A stretch of DNA of 64,000 bases from Chlamydiota bacterium (GTDB lineage Bacteria > Chlamydiota > Chlamydiia > Chlamydiales > Rhabdochlamydiaceae), in the NCBI GenBank assembly GCA_030916885.1, contig JAUPVT010000064.1, positions 6,618 through 70,617 on the forward strand. The letters run 5' to 3'. The position numbers and the translations under genes were made by a program. The number at the start of each line of letters is the position of its first letter. Within the stretch, counting starts at the first letter, position 1. This document shows, in pieces, positions 2,815-58,283 of the stretch. Below the pieces are notes generated by a model. That model was given only the letters and a program-made list of their open reading frames with translations, did not search any database and was not told the DNA's origin.

Positions 2815-4128
2815 ATGGATATAAAAATTTTTATTGAGTATTTTACTTTATTTATAGTTTTTCCAGCTATTGTTTGTTCTGGTATGTATCTCACTCTAAA
2901 ATTACGCTTTATCCAAATCTTTCAACTAAAAAAAAGCTTTCTTTGCGTTACTAAAAAAAGTACAGGGCAGGAAGGTAACATTAGTCATTTTGGCGCTATA
3001 GCTTCTGTTTTAGCAGGGAATTTTGGGACAGGAAATATATCAGGCATGGCTGTGGCCATAGGTACAGGGGGCCCAGGTGCTTTGGTTTGGATGTGGGTAA
3101 TGGCCTTTTTTGGAGCAGCCATTCAATATGTAAGTTGTGTTTTGAGCATTTCTTTTCGCCAAAAAACAGAAAAAAATGAGTATGTAGGAGGTCCTATGTA
3201 TTACCTAAGAGATGGTTTAGGTTATAAAATGATAGCTATCTTGTTTGCTATTTTTACTCTTTTTGGCTCTATTACAGTAGGAAATTTTGCACAAATTAAT
3301 TCTGTTGTTCTCCCCTTAGAAAAAATGGGATTCAATCCTTTATATTGTAGTATAGCTTTTGCGGTAGTAGTGGGCATAGTGATTTTAGGAGGCATCCAAA
3401 GAATTGCAAACTTTGCTTCCTATATAGTTCCTTTTAAAGCACTCATTTATTTAGGCACCGCTTTTATCATTATCGCTTTGCAATACGATAAAATTCTACC
3501 TTCTTTTGGATTGATGTTCCAACATGCTTTTGGTTTTTCTTCTTTTATAGGAGGGGCTTTAGGAATAGGAGTTCTTAAAGCAATGACTACAGGGTTTGAT
3601 AGAGGACTTTTTGCAACGGATGCGGGAACAGGAATAGTGCCTATTTTACAAGCAAGTGCTCATGCTAAAAATCCCATTATTAATGGAATCACCACTTTAA
3701 TTACTCCTGTAATTGTTATGATTGTTTGCACGACTACAGGACTCGTGTTGATTATAACGGGGGCTTGGCAGATTCCCAATTTATATAGCACAAATATGGT
3801 TACCTATGCTTTTTCCCAAGGATTAAATTCTGCAATAGGGGGATATATAGTTATTATAGCACTTGTTTTATTTGCTTATACCACTATTTTAGCCTGGTCT
3901 TACTGTGGAGAAAAAGCTTTAGGCTTTTTAATAGGTAATGAAAAAGCTCATTATTTTAGGTTTTTTTATGTGCTTTTGATCCCAATAGGAAGTGTAATGA
4001 AAGTGGATATGATTTGGAGTTTAGCAGATATAGCTATTGCTCTGATGTTAGTAACTAATTTAATAGGGGTTATGAAACTATCTAAAAGAGTGATTGCTTC
4101 TAGCCGTCAATTCGGGTTGTCTATATGA
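2815..4128 (+). CDS. Alanine/glycine:cation symporter (AgcS family)
   Basis: GNFGTGNISG, GGPGALVWMW, GGPMYYL, RGLFATDAGTG; multi-pass membrane protein. Confidence 0.92.
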   Translation: MDIKIFIEYFTLFIVFPAIVCSGMYLTLKLRFIQIFQLKKSFLCVTKKSTGQEGNISHFGAIASVLAGNFGTGNISGMAVAIGTGGPGALVWMWVMAFFGAAIQYVSCVLSISFRQKTEKNEYVGGPMYYLRDGLGYKMIAILFAIFTLFGSITVGNFAQINSVVLPLEKMGFNPLYCSIAFAVVVGIVILGGIQRIANFASYIVPFKALIYLGTAFIIIALQYDKILPSFGLMFQHAFGFSSFIGGALGIGVLKAMTTGFDRGLFATDAGTGIVPILQASAHAKNPIINGITTLITPVIVMIVCTTTGLVLIITGAWQIPNLYSTNMVTYAFSQGLNSAIGGYIVIIALVLFAYTTILAWSYCGEKALGFLIGNEKAHYFRFFYVLLIPIGSVMKVDMIWSLADIAIALMLVTNLIGVMKLSKRVIASSRQFGLSI

Positions 4129-4435
4129 GTTTACAGCTTTTCATAAGCTACCTTAATGGATGCAACAGTGGGACTAAAAGTTTATGGTTAAGGATATCTG
4201 CATTAGGGAATAAATGAGTGTTCATAGGGTCTTTTATAGAGAGTAAAACAATAGGTTTTTTTCTGCTTATTTTATTTGTCCTAATATTTTATGATTTATA
4301 GTATTCAACTATATTTAGTCTTAAAATAAGAGTGTTTATTATATGTTTATTAGTTTATCAGAATGTTATTAAAATAATAAATTTATTCCTATCACCAGTC
4401 AGGAGATACCGAGATCTACTGACAACATTAAGTGC

Positions 4436-50680: not shown

Positions 50681-51307
50681 ATGAATTTCACACAAATTAT
50701 TAACTATTTTATTTCTTTACTTGTTGTCTGCAGTCCTTTTGCAGCTCTTCCTGCTCTTCTGAATTTGACTCAAGGAATGACATTGAAGGAGAAAAAAAGT
50801 ACAGGTCTAGTTGCTGGTGTAGCAGTGGGAGTAATCCTTATTTCAATGACTTGGATTGGAAGCTCTTTTTTAAGTTTTTTAGGAATTACTATACCCGCTT
50901 TTCAAATAACGGGCGGAATAGTAATATTTTTATTGGCTTTTTCTATGCTAAACGCACAAGTTAGCCGTATAAAGCAAACTATAGAAGATCAAAAAGAAGC
51001 GAAAAAAAAAGACTCAGTAGCTATTGTTCCCTTAGCCATCCCCATTACAGCAGGCCCCGGAGCGATTAGCACGGTAATTATAGCTAATGCTGCTTATCCA
51101 GGACTAACAAGCCAGGTATATATGACGATTTGTGCAGCTTTAGTAGCCTTAGTCATAGGGGTTACTTTATATTTTGCTGGGAATATCGAGAGATTTTTAG
51201 GACAAACAGGAATCAATATTTTTAACCGAATTGCTGGATTAATTTTAGCGGCAATGGCAATACAAATGCTAGCGAAAGGAGCTTTGGGCCTTTTAACAAT
51301 CCTTTGA
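50681..51307 (+). CDS. MarC family membrane protein
   Basis: AFQITGGIVIF, AIVPLAIPITAGPGAIS, RIAGLIL. Confidence 0.92.
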   Translation: MNFTQIINYFISLLVVCSPFAALPALLNLTQGMTLKEKKSTGLVAGVAVGVILISMTWIGSSFLSFLGITIPAFQITGGIVIFLLAFSMLNAQVSRIKQTIEDQKEAKKKDSVAIVPLAIPITAGPGAISTVIIANAAYPGLTSQVYMTICAALVALVIGVTLYFAGNIERFLGQTGINIFNRIAGLILAAMAIQMLAKGALGLLTIL

Positions 51308-52183
51308 TAAACGCCGATTTAGATAAGCTGCAAGAGAAGGATGATGTAAATTTAACCACTCTTGTAAGGGAGTGATGATTTTTTTGATTTCTTGATGTAA
51401 AATTTTAGGGTTTTTTTGATTTGAATCACGGCAAAGCCTTCCTAAATCGATCTGCATGGCTTGAGAACCTACTAATCCAAGGTTTTTATTGATTTTAGGA
51501 TCTAAATCAAGAATGCCTTTTTTGCCTCTTTGTATAAAAAACTCAATTAAATTATCAATGGCCACCTGAGCCCCTTTTTCTCCTTCTGTTTGAATAATCT
51601 GAGAAAGGCCTGGGTAAATAAGAGAGGCTTTTTTTTGTACAATGCATACAACTTGATCTAGAAAGACTTGGCGAGTCATCCCTATTTTATCGACTACTGT
51701 GACATAGCGGTTTAGGGGATAATTTTTTTGCAACCTAGCAAAGATTAATCCGCTTTCCTTAGAGAGATCCTCACAAGCGATTTCATAGCTTTTACATTCT
51801 TTCTCAATCCGTTTTCTTAATCGTAATAATTTTTTAAGATATTGGTTTTGGAAACAGGGAAACGCAGAAAGTAGCTTTAGAGAAAAAGAGGGATTAATTT
51901 TCCTAAATTTCAAAAACTTAATGACACACTTTTTATCCTTTGACATAAAAGCGTATGCTTGACCTCCTTTTTCTAAGAAGTAAAAAGGCTGATCCAAGCA
52001 AGAGAGATCTGCATTTTGAAATAAGCTATCAATCTTCCACTCTTCTGTATCTGGAATAGAGCCTTGGATTTTTTCTATACGAAAACCAGAAGTTTGACCA
52101 TTACAAAATACTTTAACTAGAAAGAAACAAAAAATAATAAGGGCTATGTTTAATAGTACTTCGCTTAATTTTAGTAATTTCAT
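51293..52183 (-). CDS. Membrane-anchored protein kinase-like fold hypothetical protein
   Basis: N-terminal TM; LEKGGQAYAF...CVIKF (G-loop/VAIK-like); GILDLDP...N...IDLG (catalytic loop/DFG-like). Confidence 0.6.
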   Translation of the reverse strand: MKLLKLSEVLLNIALIIFCFFLVKVFCNGQTSGFRIEKIQGSIPDTEEWKIDSLFQNADLSCLDQPFYFLEKGGQAYAFMSKDKKCVIKFLKFRKINPSFSLKLLSAFPCFQNQYLKKLLRLRKRIEKECKSYEIACEDLSKESGLIFARLQKNYPLNRYVTVVDKIGMTRQVFLDQVVCIVQKKASLIYPGLSQIIQTEGEKGAQVAIDNLIEFFIQRGKKGILDLDPKINKNLGLVGSQAMQIDLGRLCRDSNQKNPKILHQEIKKIITPLQEWLNLHHPSLAAYLNRRLSKDC

Positions 52184-52187
52184 CCAT

Positions 52188-53012
52188 TTATTGAATGCTA
52201 AATCTGCGCTCAACATTATTAAATATTCCAGGGACTAATTGGTTATTAGAATCTAAAAGCTGTAATCGAATACGGTGAGTGCCTCTCTTAAGACCATATA
52301 TGTAATAAGGCTGCCATGAGGTAAGGATCTCTTTTGTAGCATGATCAATTTCTACATTTACTTTGTAACCATCTCGGGATAATTGGCAGTTGGTAATATA
52401 GAAATCCAGTAAAATGGGCTGTGGATTACAGCCTCTTTGGTCACAACCTTGCTGAAAATACTCTCCTTGAGGTTCATTATAAGTTAAGTAGGGCTTACAT
52501 AAATCTACAGAAAAGCGATGATCGTGGTTTTGATGGTAAAAAGTTCTTACTGCAAAGCAACCCTTGTCTTTGAGGCTTTCTTTAAACGAGCGAGCGGGAA
52601 AAACGCGCATGACATGCATACCTGGGCGAAGGGCAAAAGGTATGTCAAATAAAGCAAGCTCATTACTGTTTTCATCAATTCCTCTTCCCGCGTCCATATC
52701 TGATTCAGTAATGGTAAAATAGGGTTGATTATCAACGATTATGTGGAGGGTTTGTCCTTTTGGATCATTGAAAATTTCTTTTTTGCGTGGAAATTCGCTA
52801 TCTACTCCCAAAGCAAGCCCTGTAATGCGAATTTGCCCTCTACTATCAGAACGGCACAACTCCTTTTCTGAAGGATAAATAACTTTTACGTTTACATGAT
52901 CGGGTTCAGGTGTAGCAGATACAGGCACAATCCGAATAGACGATTCAGAGCAAAGATCTAAAGAGGAACAAAGGGCTAAAACAAACGCGGCAGATGTAAA
53001 TAATCTCCTCAT
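52188..53012 (-). CDS. Secreted hypothetical protein, beta-rich
   Basis: 274 aa with a signal peptide and two Ig-like-looking halves. Confidence 0.75.
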   Translation of the reverse strand: MRRLFTSAAFVLALCSSLDLCSESSIRIVPVSATPEPDHVNVKVIYPSEKELCRSDSRGQIRITGLALGVDSEFPRKKEIFNDPKGQTLHIIVDNQPYFTITESDMDAGRGIDENSNELALFDIPFALRPGMHVMRVFPARSFKESLKDKGCFAVRTFYHQNHDHRFSVDLCKPYLTYNEPQGEYFQQGCDQRGCNPQPILLDFYITNCQLSRDGYKVNVEIDHATKEILTSWQPYYIYGLKRGTHRIRLQLLDSNNQLVPGIFNNVERRFSIQ

Positions 53013-53114: not shown

Positions 53115-54098
53115 ATGGATTTTGCTCTTGTTATTTGTATTGTAGTTTTAGGACTTGCTTTTGATTATACCAATGGCTTTCACGATGCAGCAAATGTGGT
53201 ATCTACTGTCATAGCGACACGTGTATTAACACCGCTTGTAGCCATTTGTATGGCCTCTATATTGAATGTGATAGGAGCGACACAAATTAGTGGTGTTGCT
53301 CAGACGATTGCATCTGGATTAGTAGATCCAAATTACACCTCTTCTATCACAATCATTGCTGCTTTATTAGGAGCCATCATTTGGAATGTTTTCACTTGGT
53401 CTTTAGGGATCCCTAGCAGTTCTTCTTATGCTTTGATCGGAGGGTTAATCGGTTCTGTCTGGGCACAAAACGGGTTACAAGCAATTTACTGGTATCCCTT
53501 AATGAAGAAGGTAGTTATTCCGATGGTTCTCTCACCCCTAATGGGTTGTTTATTTAGTTTTTCTTTTCTAAAAATATTACAATTTTTCATAAAGCGTTTT
53601 GATAAATTTACTCGTTTATTCGCCTGTTTGCAAATTGTCTCTTCTGCTCTTGTCGCTTTAGCTCATGGTTTAAATGATGCACAAAAAAGCATGGGAATCA
53701 TTACTCTTGGGCTTTTTAGCGCAGGTATTATTTCTACAGATAGCATTCCTCTTTGGGTGATTTTATCTTGTGCTTTAGTGATTGGGGTTGGAACCGCTTC
53801 TGGAGGTTTTAGGGTTATTCGTACAGTAGGGTTTCGAATTACACACCTTAAATCTTATCAAGGATTTGCAGCAGAAAGCAGCTCTTCTTTAGTTATTTTA
53901 CTAGCTAGCTTTCTAGGAATGCCAATTAGTTCAACCCAAATGATTGTAGGCAGTATAACAGGAGTTGGTTTAGCCAAAGAAAAACCCAATGTACAATGGA
54001 AAACAGCCCGTAGGCTTGTTTTGACATGGATTCTAACCCTACCGCTTGTAGCTAGTTTTTCTTGCCTGATTTTTATGTTATTTAAAGTTTTTATTTAA
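53115..54098 (+). CDS. Inorganic phosphate transporter (PiT family)
   Basis: NGFHDAAN and AHGLNDAQK signature motifs, PISSTQ. Confidence 0.93.
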   Translation: MDFALVICIVVLGLAFDYTNGFHDAANVVSTVIATRVLTPLVAICMASILNVIGATQISGVAQTIASGLVDPNYTSSITIIAALLGAIIWNVFTWSLGIPSSSSYALIGGLIGSVWAQNGLQAIYWYPLMKKVVIPMVLSPLMGCLFSFSFLKILQFFIKRFDKFTRLFACLQIVSSALVALAHGLNDAQKSMGIITLGLFSAGIISTDSIPLWVILSCALVIGVGTASGGFRVIRTVGFRITHLKSYQGFAAESSSSLVILLASFLGMPISSTQMIVGSITGVGLAKEKPNVQWKTARRLVLTWILTLPLVASFSCLIFMLFKVFI

Positions 54099-54428
54099 AA
54101 GGTAACAGGAATCAAGGATTTTGCCTTTTCTAGTCGATTCTTTTAATTGTGTGTTAAAAAATTCGCTTTGGGCTGCATATGAGCAAGATTTATACTTAAT
54201 CAATGAGAAAAATTCAATGTGTTTGTTTTTTTAACAATCTTTTTTCTAATGCAATTCAGTATACAGATCTTTGTTTGCGTAAGGTGAGTCAATAAGATCA
54301 ACCACAATGTCTTTAAAAGTCCGTTTTTTTAGATTTTCCGAAAAAAAAATTGCTTTTACTTAAAAAAAATGATATGAATTTAAATTCATTATGTAAATCA
54401 AAGAAAAAACATTCCAAAGGTTAAAGCT

Positions 54429-54695
54429 ATGAACTTAATTAGCTCTTTGTCAAATAGACAACTTGTTATAAATGATATCATGCCAAAATTGAATGCTGCT
54501 AAAATCCTTAAAGCAAGTGCTGTTGTAGCACCTATATTTCTGACTTTACAAATGTTAGGTAGCATACCAGCTGCTGAAGCAGGTTTTATTTGTTATACTT
54601 TGTGCATGTCAACTTGTACAGCAGCAACAGGTGGTGCATTTATTCCTGCATGCGTAGCAGCTTGCGTTGCGGCTTGTTCTACAAATCCTGTTTAG
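54429..54695 (+). CDS. Secreted six-cysteine peptide precursor (CX3CX3C x2)
   Basis: 88 aa; hydrophobic leader ending AEA|G; core GFICYTLCMSTCTAATGGAFIPACVAACVAACSTNPV. Confidence 0.75.
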   Translation: MNLISSLSNRQLVINDIMPKLNAAKILKASAVVAPIFLTLQMLGSIPAAEAGFICYTLCMSTCTAATGGAFIPACVAACVAACSTNPV

Positions 54696-54722
54696 AATAA
54701 AAAATATTAAAGGATTATCATT

Positions 54723-55172
54723 TTGAATAATAAATTTACTGAGAATGAGTTAAAGGTTAAAAAATGGTGGTTAATGGTCTTTTTTGTTTCCTTTGCGTTT
54801 ACACTTGCCAACTCTTTCATGCATCCAGATTTTACGAAGTCTTCAAAAAACGTAATGTTTTTTGGAATTGGATGCACATGCTTATATAAACTCATGTTTT
54901 ATTATTTTGGATATATTAGAAGAGGAACCAAATTTTTAGCATTTGCCCTTTTCTTGTTTGCTTTTGGATTTGGAATGCAATTATTTTTTTTCTTATTTCC
55001 AGTTAACATCTCATTTATTCAATTATTTAATTCAAATTTAAAAAAAATGAACCCTATACTTTTAATTATTGATTATTTAATTTCTTTTTCTTTTTTTTAT
55101 ATCACTTTAAAATTTAGAAAAATTAATAAGTTGAATAAATTACAGAAAACTAACCATACTTCAATAAATTAG
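54723..55172 (+). CDS. Small ~4-TM membrane protein (immunity-like)
   Basis: 149 aa, Phe-rich, TTG start 27 nt after the peptide gene, AAAGGA upstream. Confidence 0.7.
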   Translation: MNNKFTENELKVKKWWLMVFFVSFAFTLANSFMHPDFTKSSKNVMFFGIGCTCLYKLMFYYFGYIRRGTKFLAFALFLFAFGFGMQLFFFLFPVNISFIQLFNSNLKKMNPILLIIDYLISFSFFYITLKFRKINKLNKLQKTNHTSIN

Positions 55173-55221
55173 ATGTAAGGTGGACTATTTCATCTTGATT
55201 CTCTACTTATAATAATAGATT

Positions 55222-55301: not shown

Positions 55302-56022
55302 CTCATGGAATTTTTATCATAGATTCTGCTAAGATTCCGACTCATACGAAACCTACTACGTTGCTTCTAGATGATGATACGATAAGACATTAATATAAAA
55401 CATATCTAGAAGGAGGGAAAGAGGTCTTACTCAATCTAAATTACATAGGAAAAGCTTGTAGACTTAATCAAGAACACCTAGATCATTTCAAGGCTTATGT
55501 AAATCAAGAAGAGTCTAGTTCAGCCAAAAAAATCAGTAACTTTATCAAAGAGCATAATGCTAGAAGAACAACTTTCAGAAATAGATCAACTAGTTTACAT
55601 AGATGGACTTCATCCTAACACAATTCCAAGCCTTCTTATGGATGGTTTGAAAAAGGAGTCAAAGCTCTAAGCCAATAGAGGCCGTCAAAGAATAAATATT
55701 AATGGAGCGTTAAACGCTAATAATCTAGAAGTAACAACTGTTACTGCAGACTCCATAAATGCACAATCTACCATTGATTTATTTCAGAAATTAGAAAAGC
55801 AATATCCCCATGTAAAACGCATTATAGCGATATGTGATAATGCAAGTTACTACAGATCAAAACTGGTTACTGAGTATCTCAAAAAATCTAGAGTAAAAAT
55901 CAAATTCTTACCCAGATGCTCTCCAAATCTTAATCTGATCAAACGACTAAGGAAGAGCTAAAGAGTCTTCTTGTTAAAAATTTCTATATTATAAATCTGT
56001 AATTTAAAACCTATCGAGTATA
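55301..56022 (+). mobile_element. IS630-family relic (left end lost)
   Basis: Fragments RGRQRININGALNANNLEVTTVTADSINAQSTIDLFQKLEKQYPHVKRIIAICDNASYYRSKLVTEYL...SPNLNLIKRL; right end ATCGAGTATA like the 31890 copy. Confidence 0.88.
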
Positions 56023-56231: not shown

Positions 56232-58283
56232 ATGGCTTCTAAAGCTGTTTCTGAATCTGAATTTATTGAAGCGGTGAATTATTTATCGCATCTTATTGAA
56301 CTAAAGCCTTTTGAAAAAGAAGCGATCATTAAACATGGTTTTAATGAACAAGATGATTTACTAAAAAGAGAAAAGGTCCAGCAGATTTTTCGTACAATTC
56401 TAAACTATTTACGAAAGGTATACGAATCAGACCGTGAGTACTTTCATCCACAGCAAATGGAAAAATCGGTTTATGCCGTTATGGCTCTAGCAGATGAAGC
56501 TGTTAAAAAGTGGGATAGGTATACACTTCTCTTTAAGAAAACGCAAGATAGAGAAAGTGTACAGCTTTTAAAAGAGTATCGAGATCTAAAGCAGTTTTTT
56601 AAATCAAAGGTCGTTCATTTTAATAAAAAAGATCTAGAAGTAGGGGTAGAGGAACAGCGCATTACAGATAGTGGTTTCTTAATCAAAGATTTAGAAACCA
56701 TACGTTCAGATGCTGATTATGAACTATTATTGCTACGTAAAGAAGAAGGAGGCTATTTTGCTCCTTCTGCCTTACTAAGGCACGTTCTATTAGTGGGGCA
56801 AAGTGATGAACTCCTATTACATTCTGATTATCAAGAACTTATTTCTCATTTAAAAGCTACAAAAGATCTACAGGCCCATATAATAGCCCAAGCGATGCTA
56901 AAACAGAGCCTTCCCTTTATAGATAATTTTTTTAAGCAAGTAAAAGATCTGAAATTAGAAGAAAGTGTGACTTGCATGAGTAAGGCATTAATTGCTTTAA
57001 TGCTAGCTTCAAATCCTTATAATCTCATGAGAAATGATGCAGATAAAGTCTGTGAGCAATACTTGGTTGATTTTTGTGTGTTTTTACGTCAGGCTATCTC
57101 TCAACCAAGACCTAGCCCTTTAACGGCTTTAATCGATCCTTTATATCATAAGCTTTCTTATCTGCTATTCACGCAAGCTTGTAATTATGAAAAAGCTCTT
57201 GAGTTAATTGGGCAGTTGATTTCTATGGGGCATAGTAAAAATGAGCTGCTTTCAGCAAAAAAAATTCAATTAGATAGTGTTATTCTTTATCAAGATGTAG
57301 CCATTCGTAATGCTCTTAAGGCATATCCAAGTGGTCCTTTGATGCAGGCTTTAACTTTGGTAAGAGAACAGCGTTTAGGACAGGGTTTAGATCTATTTAG
57401 TCAAAAAAATTGGCCTATACAAATTTATACAATTTTAACGGATAAATTGAAGATTAGCTGTATGAAGATTGCCTCTATGACTATGCAAACAACTCTAGAG
57501 GATGTAGAGCTTGTTCCTGAATTTTTAGGTTTTATTCAGGTTTTAGGAAGAGAGCAAGATCAGAAATATTTAGTGATTAACTTACAAAATAGATCCTCTT
57601 GGCAAGAAAAAGCGCGCTGTAACTGCTTGGAGAAATCTCAATACAAGCAAGAGTTCTCAGATCATTTCGTTGTCATTACTTTTGATAGAGATAGTGACTT
57701 TTACCATCAAAGAGACGGTGGTCCAAAAGCTAGTGTTTTCTTATCAAAATGTGCACAAGGGGTCTTAAATGGGCAGGAATATGGGTTCTACTTTCCTCCA
57801 ACGATAAATAGCAGTCGATTAACCTTTTTTGTAAATAAAGCTGTTTTATTAGTTCATGAGCTCTTTTTTGATGGGAAAGAGGAATTTTCTCATCAAGATA
57901 GATTAGATTATATTGAGATTTTTCATTTCTTTTTGTTTTTGCATATAATAGATCAAACAACACCAGATATTTTAAGCTTTACTTGCAAAGATGGGGTAGA
58001 TACAAGTTCTATATTTAGTGCAGAAGTATTTGCTTGGCTGCATGTGATGAATCACCCAGAGGGTCTGCTTAAATCAAAAAGAGATTTTCTGCTTTACTTA
58101 TTATATGCCCCTGCAATGACGTTAAGAGGGCGTGGTATAGATAAAGACAGGATCCAAAGAATGGCTGGTGCGATGCATGTTTTTATTGAAAAGCTCAATC
58201 ATAATGGATTTGTTATACAAGAAGCGTTTTCTCAGCTATATCAAATGAGCTTTTTTAATAAAGCAGGCGTACAAGAGGGTTAG
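56232..58283 (+). CDS. Large hypothetical protein with a degenerate CX5R-like motif (SFTCKDGVDT)
   Basis: 683-aa intact ORF; motif resembles the CKSGKDR motif of phosphoinositide phosphatases. Confidence 0.8.
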   Translation: MASKAVSESEFIEAVNYLSHLIELKPFEKEAIIKHGFNEQDDLLKREKVQQIFRTILNYLRKVYESDREYFHPQQMEKSVYAVMALADEAVKKWDRYTLLFKKTQDRESVQLLKEYRDLKQFFKSKVVHFNKKDLEVGVEEQRITDSGFLIKDLETIRSDADYELLLLRKEEGGYFAPSALLRHVLLVGQSDELLLHSDYQELISHLKATKDLQAHIIAQAMLKQSLPFIDNFFKQVKDLKLEESVTCMSKALIALMLASNPYNLMRNDADKVCEQYLVDFCVFLRQAISQPRPSPLTALIDPLYHKLSYLLFTQACNYEKALELIGQLISMGHSKNELLSAKKIQLDSVILYQDVAIRNALKAYPSGPLMQALTLVREQRLGQGLDLFSQKNWPIQIYTILTDKLKISCMKIASMTMQTTLEDVELVPEFLGFIQVLGREQDQKYLVINLQNRSSWQEKARCNCLEKSQYKQEFSDHFVVITFDRDSDFYHQRDGGPKASVFLSKCAQGVLNGQEYGFYFPPTINSSRLTFFVNKAVLLVHELFFDGKEEFSHQDRLDYIEIFHFFLFLHIIDQTTPDILSFTCKDGVDTSSIFSAEVFAWLHVMNHPEGLLKSKRDFLLYLLYAPAMTLRGRGIDKDRIQRMAGAMHVFIEKLNHNGFVIQEAFSQLYQMSFFNKAGVQEG

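Follow-up and report, generated by a model that had tools for sequence, protein, structure and literature searches.

What might an obligately intracellular bacterium do with a small, apparently exported six-cysteine peptide whose gene is directly followed by that of a membrane protein with four transmembrane helices (4-TM)? The question is raised by two genes at positions 54429-55172 of a 64,000-nucleotide stretch of DNA (hereafter the window, meaning the whole stretch analysed), located on contig C59 of a Candidatus Rhabdochlamydia metagenome-assembled genome (MAG; 1.37 Mb, 94% complete, coded G000). A preliminary description, made from the letters alone, had taken the pair for a candidate toxin or bacteriocin-immunity cassette. 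Judged by its sequence and its homologues, the peptide is a member of an unnamed family of exported mini-proteins with twin CX3C motifs, found only in one chlamydial order. As to what it does, the explanation that we favour, tentatively, is that of an exported, signal-peptidase-cut and disulfide-stapled hydrophobic hairpin, likely to partition into a membrane and assisted by the 4-TM protein as a non-specific accessory partner. The peptide gene comprises the following elements.

54416..54420, + strand: Shine-Dalgarno-like AAAGG, 8 nt 5' of the peptide start codon, as read from the sequence.
54429..54695, + strand: six-cysteine hairpin peptide precursor gene, 88 residues plus stop, ATG start, identified from the open reading frame (ORF) and its homologues.
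54429..54581, + strand: leader, residues 1-51, with a Ser/Asn-rich N-region of ~28 residues, an h-region of ~20 residues and the c-region P-A-A-E-A.
54582..54692, + strand: predicted mature peptide, residues 52-88 (37 residues, ~3.6 kDa), uncharged, with six cysteines.

The leader presents a hydrophobic stretch (residues 29-51) that terminates in P-A-A-E-A and is followed by Gly52. The sequence around this site, I-P-A-A-E-A/G-F (the slash standing for the presumed cut), fits the site motif of the family, P-x-A-[DE]-A/G-[PF], and the c-region obeys the signal-peptidase I rule, from which cleavage after A-E-A is predicted. The N-region of the window peptide counts 28 residues, as compared with a family-wide median of 31. 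No L-x-[GAS]-C lipobox precedes any cysteine of the window peptide, and a lipoprotein was rejected on that ground. The 37-residue tail is devoid of charged residues and very hydrophobic (grand average of hydropathy, GRAVY, +1.30), its cysteines at positions 55, 59, 63, 75, 79, and 83 forming a CX3CX3C-X11-CX3CX3C pattern that flanks a T-G-G turn. Homologues 93%, 65%, and 63% identical to the peptide occur in metagenomes. With its cysteines kept in homologues and its core under purifying selection, the pattern is far beyond chance. The anatomy given in the preliminary description was confirmed at 54429-54695, from the 88-residue ORF and the AEA/G site to the uncharged 37-residue core with its mirror-image CX3CX3C arrays, and so were the 27-nt gap to the 149-residue 4-TM gene and the borders of the pair, a PiT gene on the left and an IS630 relic on the right.

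How large is the family to which this peptide belongs? A profile of 24 members (alignment A3), searched against 1.84 billion cluster representatives, returned 352 clusters (50% identity) at E<=1e-3, with 85 at E<=1e-10, nearly all of them 82-120 residues long; the window copy matches the profile with an E-value of 2.1e-31. Features were counted on the 144 best short hits (cluster representatives). At least two CX3C motifs are present in 138 of them, the commonest cysteine spacing being 3-11-3 (28/144), while the spacing of the window peptide, 3-3-11-3-3, is shared by 10/144 representatives and five cysteines, often with a terminal P-W-C-P, are found in 40/144. The signal-peptidase I rule is fully obeyed in 125/144. 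Anchored on the conserved cysteine, the site motif reads A-L-S-[SN]-[IL]-P-[GT]-A-[ED]-A/G-P, with A or V at position -3 in 122 representatives, A, G or S at -1 in 135, G at +1 in 127, and P at +2 in 109. The N-region of the family is rich in Ser, Thr, Asn, and Gln (median length 31 residues, Ser 14.5%), and the mature part mostly carries a net charge of -1 or 0, being neutral or anionic and not cationic. In alignment A3, C59, C63, and C79 are invariant. The two CX3C motifs flank a turn that contains Gly or Pro, and the proteins end a few residues past the last cysteine in a Pro-containing tail, the ending S-T-N-P-V being common to the window peptide and to P0002, P0003, P0064, P0105, and P0136.

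The family was detected in 43/400 genomes of a phylum-wide sample, all from one chlamydial order, and its distribution is patchy: 8/8 genomes of the genus carry it, 11/89 of the Rhabdochlamydiaceae sample, and 0/29 of the Chlamydia-like family that carries OmcA. Positive genomes possess 1-6 copies, often in tandem. Pfam, NCBIfam, and PHROGs do not return any significant match for the peptide; a Pfam search at E-values up to 1 reports only a chance 'Defensin_like' match of 11.8 bits, and the ESM Atlas only sub-threshold look-alikes (holin-like, circular bacteriocin, and PagM). Scanning a metagenome collection with the six-cysteine alignment gave no match either, and the family is not described in the literature searched (CX3C in chlamydiae, Rhabdochlamydia cysteine-rich proteins, DUF2059, and Rhabdochlamydia RNA-seq). 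Regarding a phage origin, tblastn against 50,697 phage records returned no match, and scans of viral contigs from IMG/VR gave none. A core close to that of the window peptide is encoded by only one phage-like metagenome contig (L059, carrying P0136), the whole proteins being 40% identical and the leaders unrelated; its neighbours include an RNA ligase (phrog_968, E 2.7e-39), phrog_11227 (E 2.4e-49), and phrog_11827. A patchy, multi-copy, often tandem, and mobile family with hypervariable cores looks like an accessory, effector-like or toxin-like set of proteins and not like a core part of the envelope.

Which fold and which bridges may be expected for the mature peptide? With the family alignment as input, AlphaFold2 (AF2) models the precursor with helices at residues 23-45, 49-67, and 72-84, the core's predicted local distance difference test score (pLDDT) being 74-81. 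In a helical-wheel projection, each arm has its three cysteines within 80 degrees, one face per helix. The helical hairpin that had been proposed from the spacing, with cysteines on one face of each helix, is thus the predicted structure. Cys55 and Cys83, the outermost pair, are lost together in the orthologues L007, L008, and L010. This joint loss and the symmetry of the arrays make a nested pairing probable, with bridges C55-C83, C59-C79, and C63-C75. As to the chemistry of the bridges, G000 encodes DsbB as well as a DUF2059+thioredoxin protein that carries CGPC and has a short hydrophobic N-terminus; no SPASM domain was found in this 94%-complete genome, and its seven radical S-adenosylmethionine (radical-SAM) genes all lie on other contigs, with none on C59. 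These features make disulfides likelier bridges than thioethers, a preference that the preliminary description had based on the lack of an adjacent maturase gene and that now extends to the whole genome.

The partner gene begins 27 nt downstream of the peptide gene and comprises two elements.

54710..54714, + strand: Shine-Dalgarno AAGGA, 8 nt 5' of the TTG start of the membrane-protein gene.
54723..55172, + strand: gene of a 149-residue, Phe-rich, four-helix membrane protein, identified as an ORF and predicted to be N-in, C-in.

Its start codon is TTG, not ATG, in the window and in the sister strain (L050), and ATG in more distant orthologues. The family motif of the 4-TM protein reads Y-K-x-M-F-Y-Y-F-G-Y-[LI]-[KR]-[KR]-G-T-K-F-L. 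The AF2 model, based on 15 sequences, reaches a pLDDT of 81.5 and a predicted template modelling score (pTM) of 0.72, with helices at residues 2-33, 42-65, 69-91, 97-107 (short), and 111-148. Lysines and arginines are concentrated in the loop at 66-72 and in the two terminal tails, which is why both termini are predicted to be cytoplasmic. Neither Pfam, NCBIfam nor PHROGs return a significant match for this protein, Foldseek comparison of its model with the PDB reports only hits with E>7, and the ESM Atlas only sub-threshold look-alikes in unnamed clusters. The 27-nt spacer contains no terminator-like site, which points to co-transcription of the peptide and 4-TM genes; promoter and terminator scans were uninformative overall. 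The 4-TM gene (54800-55199) has a G+C content of only 24% as compared with ~33-38% around it, reflecting its Phe/Lys/Asn/Ile-rich composition. Compositional foreignness of the pair was considered and dropped, its G+C content of 24-33% not being clearly distinct from the surroundings.

Is this neighbour a constant companion of the peptides? The recurrence that the preliminary description had proposed to look for in relatives is borne out: 4-TM genes lie next to peptides of this kind at over 10 loci, which represent at least three lineages (the window, L050, L051, L053, L005/L036, L009, L010, L061, L062, L055, and L056). The seven further genomes searched within the genus carry a six- or five-cysteine peptide of 112-135 residues between mfd and a PNP_UDP-family gene. 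At this mfd locus, G002, G005, G007, and two metagenome contigs have the 4-TM gene 3' of the peptide; in G008 it is reduced to a frameshifted remnant and in G001 and G006 it is absent, the peptide being intact in all three, and G006 (97% complete, 2 contigs) does not contain any 4-TM match at all. Conversely, weak 4-TM homologues sharing a motif around Y-K-K-x-G-T-x-[FW]-L occur throughout the order in genomes without a detectable peptide, with no cysteine-containing peptide adjacent to them, and one Rhabdochlamydia MAG encodes a second 4-TM copy without an adjoining peptide. A second kind of partner is represented by DUF2059-like proteins (110-126 residues, no signal peptide), encoded 3' of twin-CX3C genes in four chlamydial families; those standing alone are mostly mildly acidic proteins of 13-14 kDa. 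At most loci of the peptide family, neither a 4-TM nor a DUF2059-like partner is located within 1.5 kb. All partner types are nevertheless tied to one module by L056 (family f5), where a DUF2059-thioredoxin gene with a signal peptide lies divergently upstream of a peptide gene followed by a DUF2059-like and a 4-TM gene.

Selection acts differently on the parts of the pair. In comparisons of the window with three relatives, the ratio of nonsynonymous to synonymous substitution rates (dN/dS) is 0.06-0.29 for the core, 0.40-0.79 for the leader, and 0.27-0.35 for the 4-TM gene; taken gene-wide, the peptide yields 0.23-0.93, and the whole-gene values of the mfd-locus peptides are 0.29-0.79. On these substitution patterns, both the peptide core and the 4-TM gene are under purifying selection. 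The preliminary description had expected a conserved leader, a variable core, and a membrane gene co-varying with the latter. The window clade shows the opposite arrangement, a conserved core behind a variable leader, and the identity of the 4-TM protein follows that of the leader (rho 0.57) and not that of the core (rho -0.04), as calculated on the 36 pairs formed by 9 two-gene loci, which are not independent, so that these correlations are descriptive only. Between the window and L056, for instance, the cores are 81% identical, the leaders 33%, and the 4-TM proteins 32%. At the mfd locus it is the leader that is more conserved than the core (79% versus 58% between L009 and L010). The cores can be sorted into a few distinct types, strongly conserved and not coupled to the sequences around them. 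The 4-TM protein is a real and recurrent partner, but being dispensable, found more widely than the peptide, and not co-varying with the core, it is probably a generic membrane handler or protector and not a matched immunity protein.

How could these elements work together? We propose that the 88-residue precursor crosses the inner membrane and is cut after A-E-A by signal peptidase I, which would release a 37-residue, uncharged, and very hydrophobic peptide starting at Gly52. In the oxidising periplasm, two short antiparallel helices would form and probably be locked by three disulfides, while the Pro-containing ends of such peptides (starting with G-P or G-F, ending with N-P-V or P-T-P) may guard them against exopeptidases. 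As the hydrophobic subtype of a diversifying family, the peptide would most likely act by partitioning into a membrane, and candidate targets are the envelope of the bacterium itself, other bacteria, and the membrane of the inclusion or of the host. The 149-residue partner in the inner membrane would probably handle or buffer the greasy peptide in the producer, providing generic protection, docking or assembly. Other members of the family would be served by the DUF2059-like proteins and by the probably exported DUF2059-thioredoxin fusion, the probable roles of which are those of a chaperone and of a disulfide catalyst.

Several points weigh against this explanation. The N-region is far longer than that of ordinary Sec signals and resembles the N-termini of chlamydial type III secretion substrates and inclusion membrane (Inc) proteins. 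For the precursor as a whole, the AF2 model reaches only a moderate mean pLDDT of 61.6, Foldseek does not report any match of the peptide model in the PDB, and DsbA was not found in G000 with PF01323 or PF13462. The strongly conserved core of the window clade would also fit a structural role in the envelope. Regarding expression, a probable RNA run contains a 251-nt contig identical to 54416-54666, with no other exact piece from the organism on a 3.5-kb stretch, and a second probable RNA run contains a 139-nt adapter-flanked fragment at 54701-54839; this is weak evidence for the gene's expression, since the RNA label is guessed, the contig is single and of low depth, and it was this gene that served as the query by which the runs were found.

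Could the peptide instead be a building block of the envelope? The cleaved hairpin would then be retained in the periplasm or on one face of a membrane and join a disulfide-linked envelope, variants with an odd number of cysteines would serve as cross-linkers, and the family would partly replace OmcA and OmcB. Such a role appears unlikely, for all the observations that speak for it. Searches with PF03503 and PF03504 gave neither an OmcA nor an OmcB match in G000 or in 11 genomes of the family, and R. helvetica has been reported to lack both proteins (PMC6490308). The five-cysteine representatives (40/144), often ending in P-W-C-P, would suit cross-linking, the core is strongly conserved in the window clade, and synteny is stable within the genus. 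An OmcB match is also absent in 13/14 peptide-positive genomes of one sample; this anticorrelation involves ~7 lineages and is not significant (estimated P about 0.16), and we dropped it as an argument, as 78/89 genomes of the same family do without the peptide. Indeed, the peptide occurs in only 11/89 Rhabdochlamydiaceae genomes although OmcB was found in none of the 11 tested, and it cannot be a general substitute. For structural parts, it would moreover be unusual to occur in tandem arrays, to combine one leader with hypervariable or even polar cores, to decay into pseudogenes, to relocate, and to have a phage-like copy. Identity with OmcA (Chlam_OMP3) or OmcB (Chlam_OMP6) themselves was rejected, in the absence of PF03503 or PF03504 matches in G000 and of a lipobox.

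The cassette suggested at the outset, in its strict form, would consist of a Sec-dependent, class II-like antibacterial hairpin that kills competitors within the same host, with the 4-TM protein dedicated to self-immunity. A signal-peptide bacteriocin followed by a small membrane protein is a known layout, exemplified by the Sec-dependent class II bacteriocins of the enterocin P type with their downstream immunity gene. The pair recurs in several lineages, a thioredoxin gene stands beside the module in L056, and the family is patchy, multi-copy, and linked to insertion sequences (IS) and to a phage-like contig. Disulfide-stapled, poorly charged helical-hairpin bacteriocins do exist, as illustrated by gallocin A, in which the disulfide is required for activity and to which a thioredoxin-like surface protein contributes (PMC10100652). 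Immunity proper is harder to reconcile with the data: the peptide is intact where the 4-TM gene is absent (G001 and G006) or broken (G008), 4-TM divergence does not follow core divergence (rho -0.04), most family members lack a 4-TM neighbour, 4-TM homologues exist in genomes without a detectable peptide and as a solitary second copy in one MAG, and in the window clade it is the core that is conserved and the leader that varies. In addition, the mature peptides are neutral or anionic and not cationic, no route across the outer membrane has been identified, and obligate intracellular bacteria meet few competitors. The predicted export signal, hairpin, and disulfides and the recurrent 4-TM gene of the preliminary reading hence find support; the matched immunity protein does not, and we consider the strict cassette improbable.

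The long N-region keeps a third explanation alive, although we rate it as very unlikely. The peptide would be a small type III-secreted Inc-like protein, the Ser-rich N-region acting as the secretion signal, the h-region and the tail together constituting a bilobed inclusion-membrane domain, and the cytoplasmic DUF2059-like neighbours serving as chaperones. The long Ser/Thr/Asn/Gln-rich N-region is the main feature left unexplained by a signal peptide, it precedes ~55-60 hydrophobic residues (about 57 in the window peptide) with a short polar break, typical Inc-like genes are found at the ancestral mfd locus, and the stand-alone DUF2059-like partners, mildly acidic, of 13-14 kDa and without a signal peptide, would fit such chaperones. 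Yet in 125/144 representatives the putative loop between the lobes conforms to the -3/-1 rule of signal peptidase and carries Pro at -5 and Gly at +1. The second lobe of the window peptide is predicted as two helices (49-67 and 72-84) split by the T-G-G turn, and the arms, of 10-16 residues and broken by Gly or Pro, are too short to span a bilayer. The invariant CX3C pairs suit an oxidising compartment, and DUF2059 is also found fused to thioredoxin, behind a clear signal peptide in L056 or a short hydrophobic N-terminus in G000. Lastly, a radical-SAM-modified, ribosomally synthesised and post-translationally modified peptide (RiPP) of the SCIFF/ranthipeptide or sactipeptide type, with thioether bridges, is barely conceivable and was rejected: a CX3CX3C arm followed by a Gly-rich turn does recall thuricin-type sactipeptides, and TIGR04117 ('Cys-Xaa-Xaa-Xaa repeat radical SAM target') gives a sub-threshold match (E 0.013, 15.6 bits against a cut-off of 50), but the genome is devoid of a SPASM domain, its seven radical-SAM genes lie on other contigs, the leader is Sec-like and not a RiPP leader, and the second arm carries matching cysteines.

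Where does the window pair come from? Two genes border its insertion site.

53115..54098, + strand: PiT/PHO4 phosphate transporter gene, left border of the insertion site (PF01384, E 3.8e-89).
55394..55961, + strand: frameshifted IS630-type (DDE_3) transposase relic, right border (stop-to-stop frames; PF13358, E 2.7e-17 for 55671-55958).

The order PiT, peptide, 4-TM is the same in the sister strain, and two relatives at a greater distance, whose peptides are 65% and 63% identical, have kept the pair as well. The mfd/PNP_UDP-family site of G000 itself, on C37 (L003, ~1413-1653), harbours a frameshifted peptide pseudogene and no 4-TM gene. As this ancestral copy is a pseudogene, the intact window pair would represent a relocated or duplicated copy that has outlived the original. 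G000 contains further relatives: on C51 a twin-CX3C copy with a DUF2059-like gene behind it, and on C52 (L048, 1474-1746; L092, 967-1788) a copy the h-region of which has decayed to ~9 hydrophobic residues, with a DUF2059-like gene ~1 kb off. About 4 kb from the C52 copy lies the gene of the 273-residue DUF2059+thioredoxin protein (CGPC motif, short hydrophobic N-terminus), which shares 52% identity with its counterpart at the L056 peptide module. On C59 itself, ~2.5-3.7 kb before the first base of the window, two tandem family genes (2886-3209 and 3753-4136, that is L095 1087-1410 and 1954-2337) encode proteins of 107 and 127 residues that join the family leader, N-L-S-K-N-x-N-x-I-A-x-P-x-I, to polar, acidic twin-CX3C cores. 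One leader type can thus carry very different cores.

Several further observations concern these surroundings. An Inc-like gene, encoding a bilobed hydrophobic domain followed by a Gln/Asn-rich coiled coil, adjoins the ancestral peptide locus throughout the genus (L005/L036, 4495-5715; L003, 2690-3073). Near the window pair, three ORFs have no match in Pfam or NCBIfam: 56232-58283 (683 residues), 52188-53012 (274 residues), and 51293-52216 (307 residues), of which the 274-residue one exhibits an ordinary short signal peptide and a dN/dS of 0.04 relative to the sister strain. DNA near-identical to the window locus is present in many freshwater, sediment, and wastewater metagenomes. Exact fragments of the locus were also found in runs X25, X26, X12, and X29, labelled with host organisms (coded A-D), and the natural host might be identifiable from those records.

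What would follow if the favoured explanation held? Beyond the single peptide, the order may own a dedicated disulfide-stapled, membrane-active peptide system, composed of diversifying CX3C hairpins with a long leader, DUF2059 chaperones, a DUF2059-thioredoxin oxidase, and the 4-TM protector, and supplying toxins that would act on co-infecting microbes or on the membranes of host or inclusion. We regard this extension as rather unlikely; if true, it would be, in the sources searched, the first bacteriocin-like or cytolytic peptide arsenal found in obligate intracellular chlamydiae, mobile via IS elements and phages. In any case, a large family (352 clusters) was found to be without a Pfam, NCBIfam or PHROG model, a solved or matching fold, or a paper, and the chlamydiae would gain a class of exported, cysteine-stapled hydrophobic mini-proteins whose partner families are likewise without a known role. 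Should the peptides be membrane-active effectors, they would change the view of competition and of host-membrane manipulation by obligate intracellular symbionts of arthropods and protists; should they be envelope parts, they would bear on disulfide-linked envelope building in lineages without OmcA and OmcB. The modules would also provide a first functional context for DUF2059, and mature peptides of 37 residues and ~3.6 kDa are directly synthesisable.

How does this putative system compare with known ones? For the precursors of SCIFF peptides, ranthipeptides, and sactipeptides, the family-model cut-off is not reached and the genome has no SPASM maturase. The systems of the enterocin P type and of gallocin A (GllA1/GllA2 with GIP) share with the window pair a small exported peptide gene directly followed by that of a small membrane protein, and the gallocin peptides are helical hairpins with few charged residues (PMC10100652), a fold likewise predicted for the peptide described here. 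Gallocin A differs in its double-glycine leader, its ABC exporter, its two-peptide composition, and its Gram-positive host (PMC10100652), whereas the partner described here can be dispensed with, does not vary along with the core and belongs to a wider family of its own, the organism is obligately intracellular, and the peptide is not known to be antibacterial. OmcA and OmcB are likewise exported chlamydial proteins that are small or rich in cysteine and presumably become oxidised in the periplasm; they are not homologous to the peptide, which has no lipobox, a predicted helical hairpin fold, and a patchy, multi-copy distribution. Like Inc proteins, the peptide begins with a long polar N-terminus, behind which ~55-60 mostly hydrophobic residues are interrupted by a short polar break, and it is chlamydia-specific and fast-evolving. 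Its break is, in contrast, a conserved signal-peptidase-type site, its second lobe is a putative Cys-stapled two-helix hairpin, and it is devoid of a cytosolic C-terminal domain. In its predicted shape, the peptide resembles the plant alpha-hairpinins (4C and 6C) and the mitochondrial small Tim proteins (zf-Tim10_DDP), which are of similar size and exhibit CX3C motifs on each of two antiparallel helices, with facing cysteines forming two or three disulfides. Those proteins, to which no Pfam or sequence relation was found, are soluble and charged, whereas the mature peptide described here is bacterial, uncharged, and strongly hydrophobic (GRAVY about +1.0 to +1.4), follows a Sec-type leader, and is encoded next to other partner genes.

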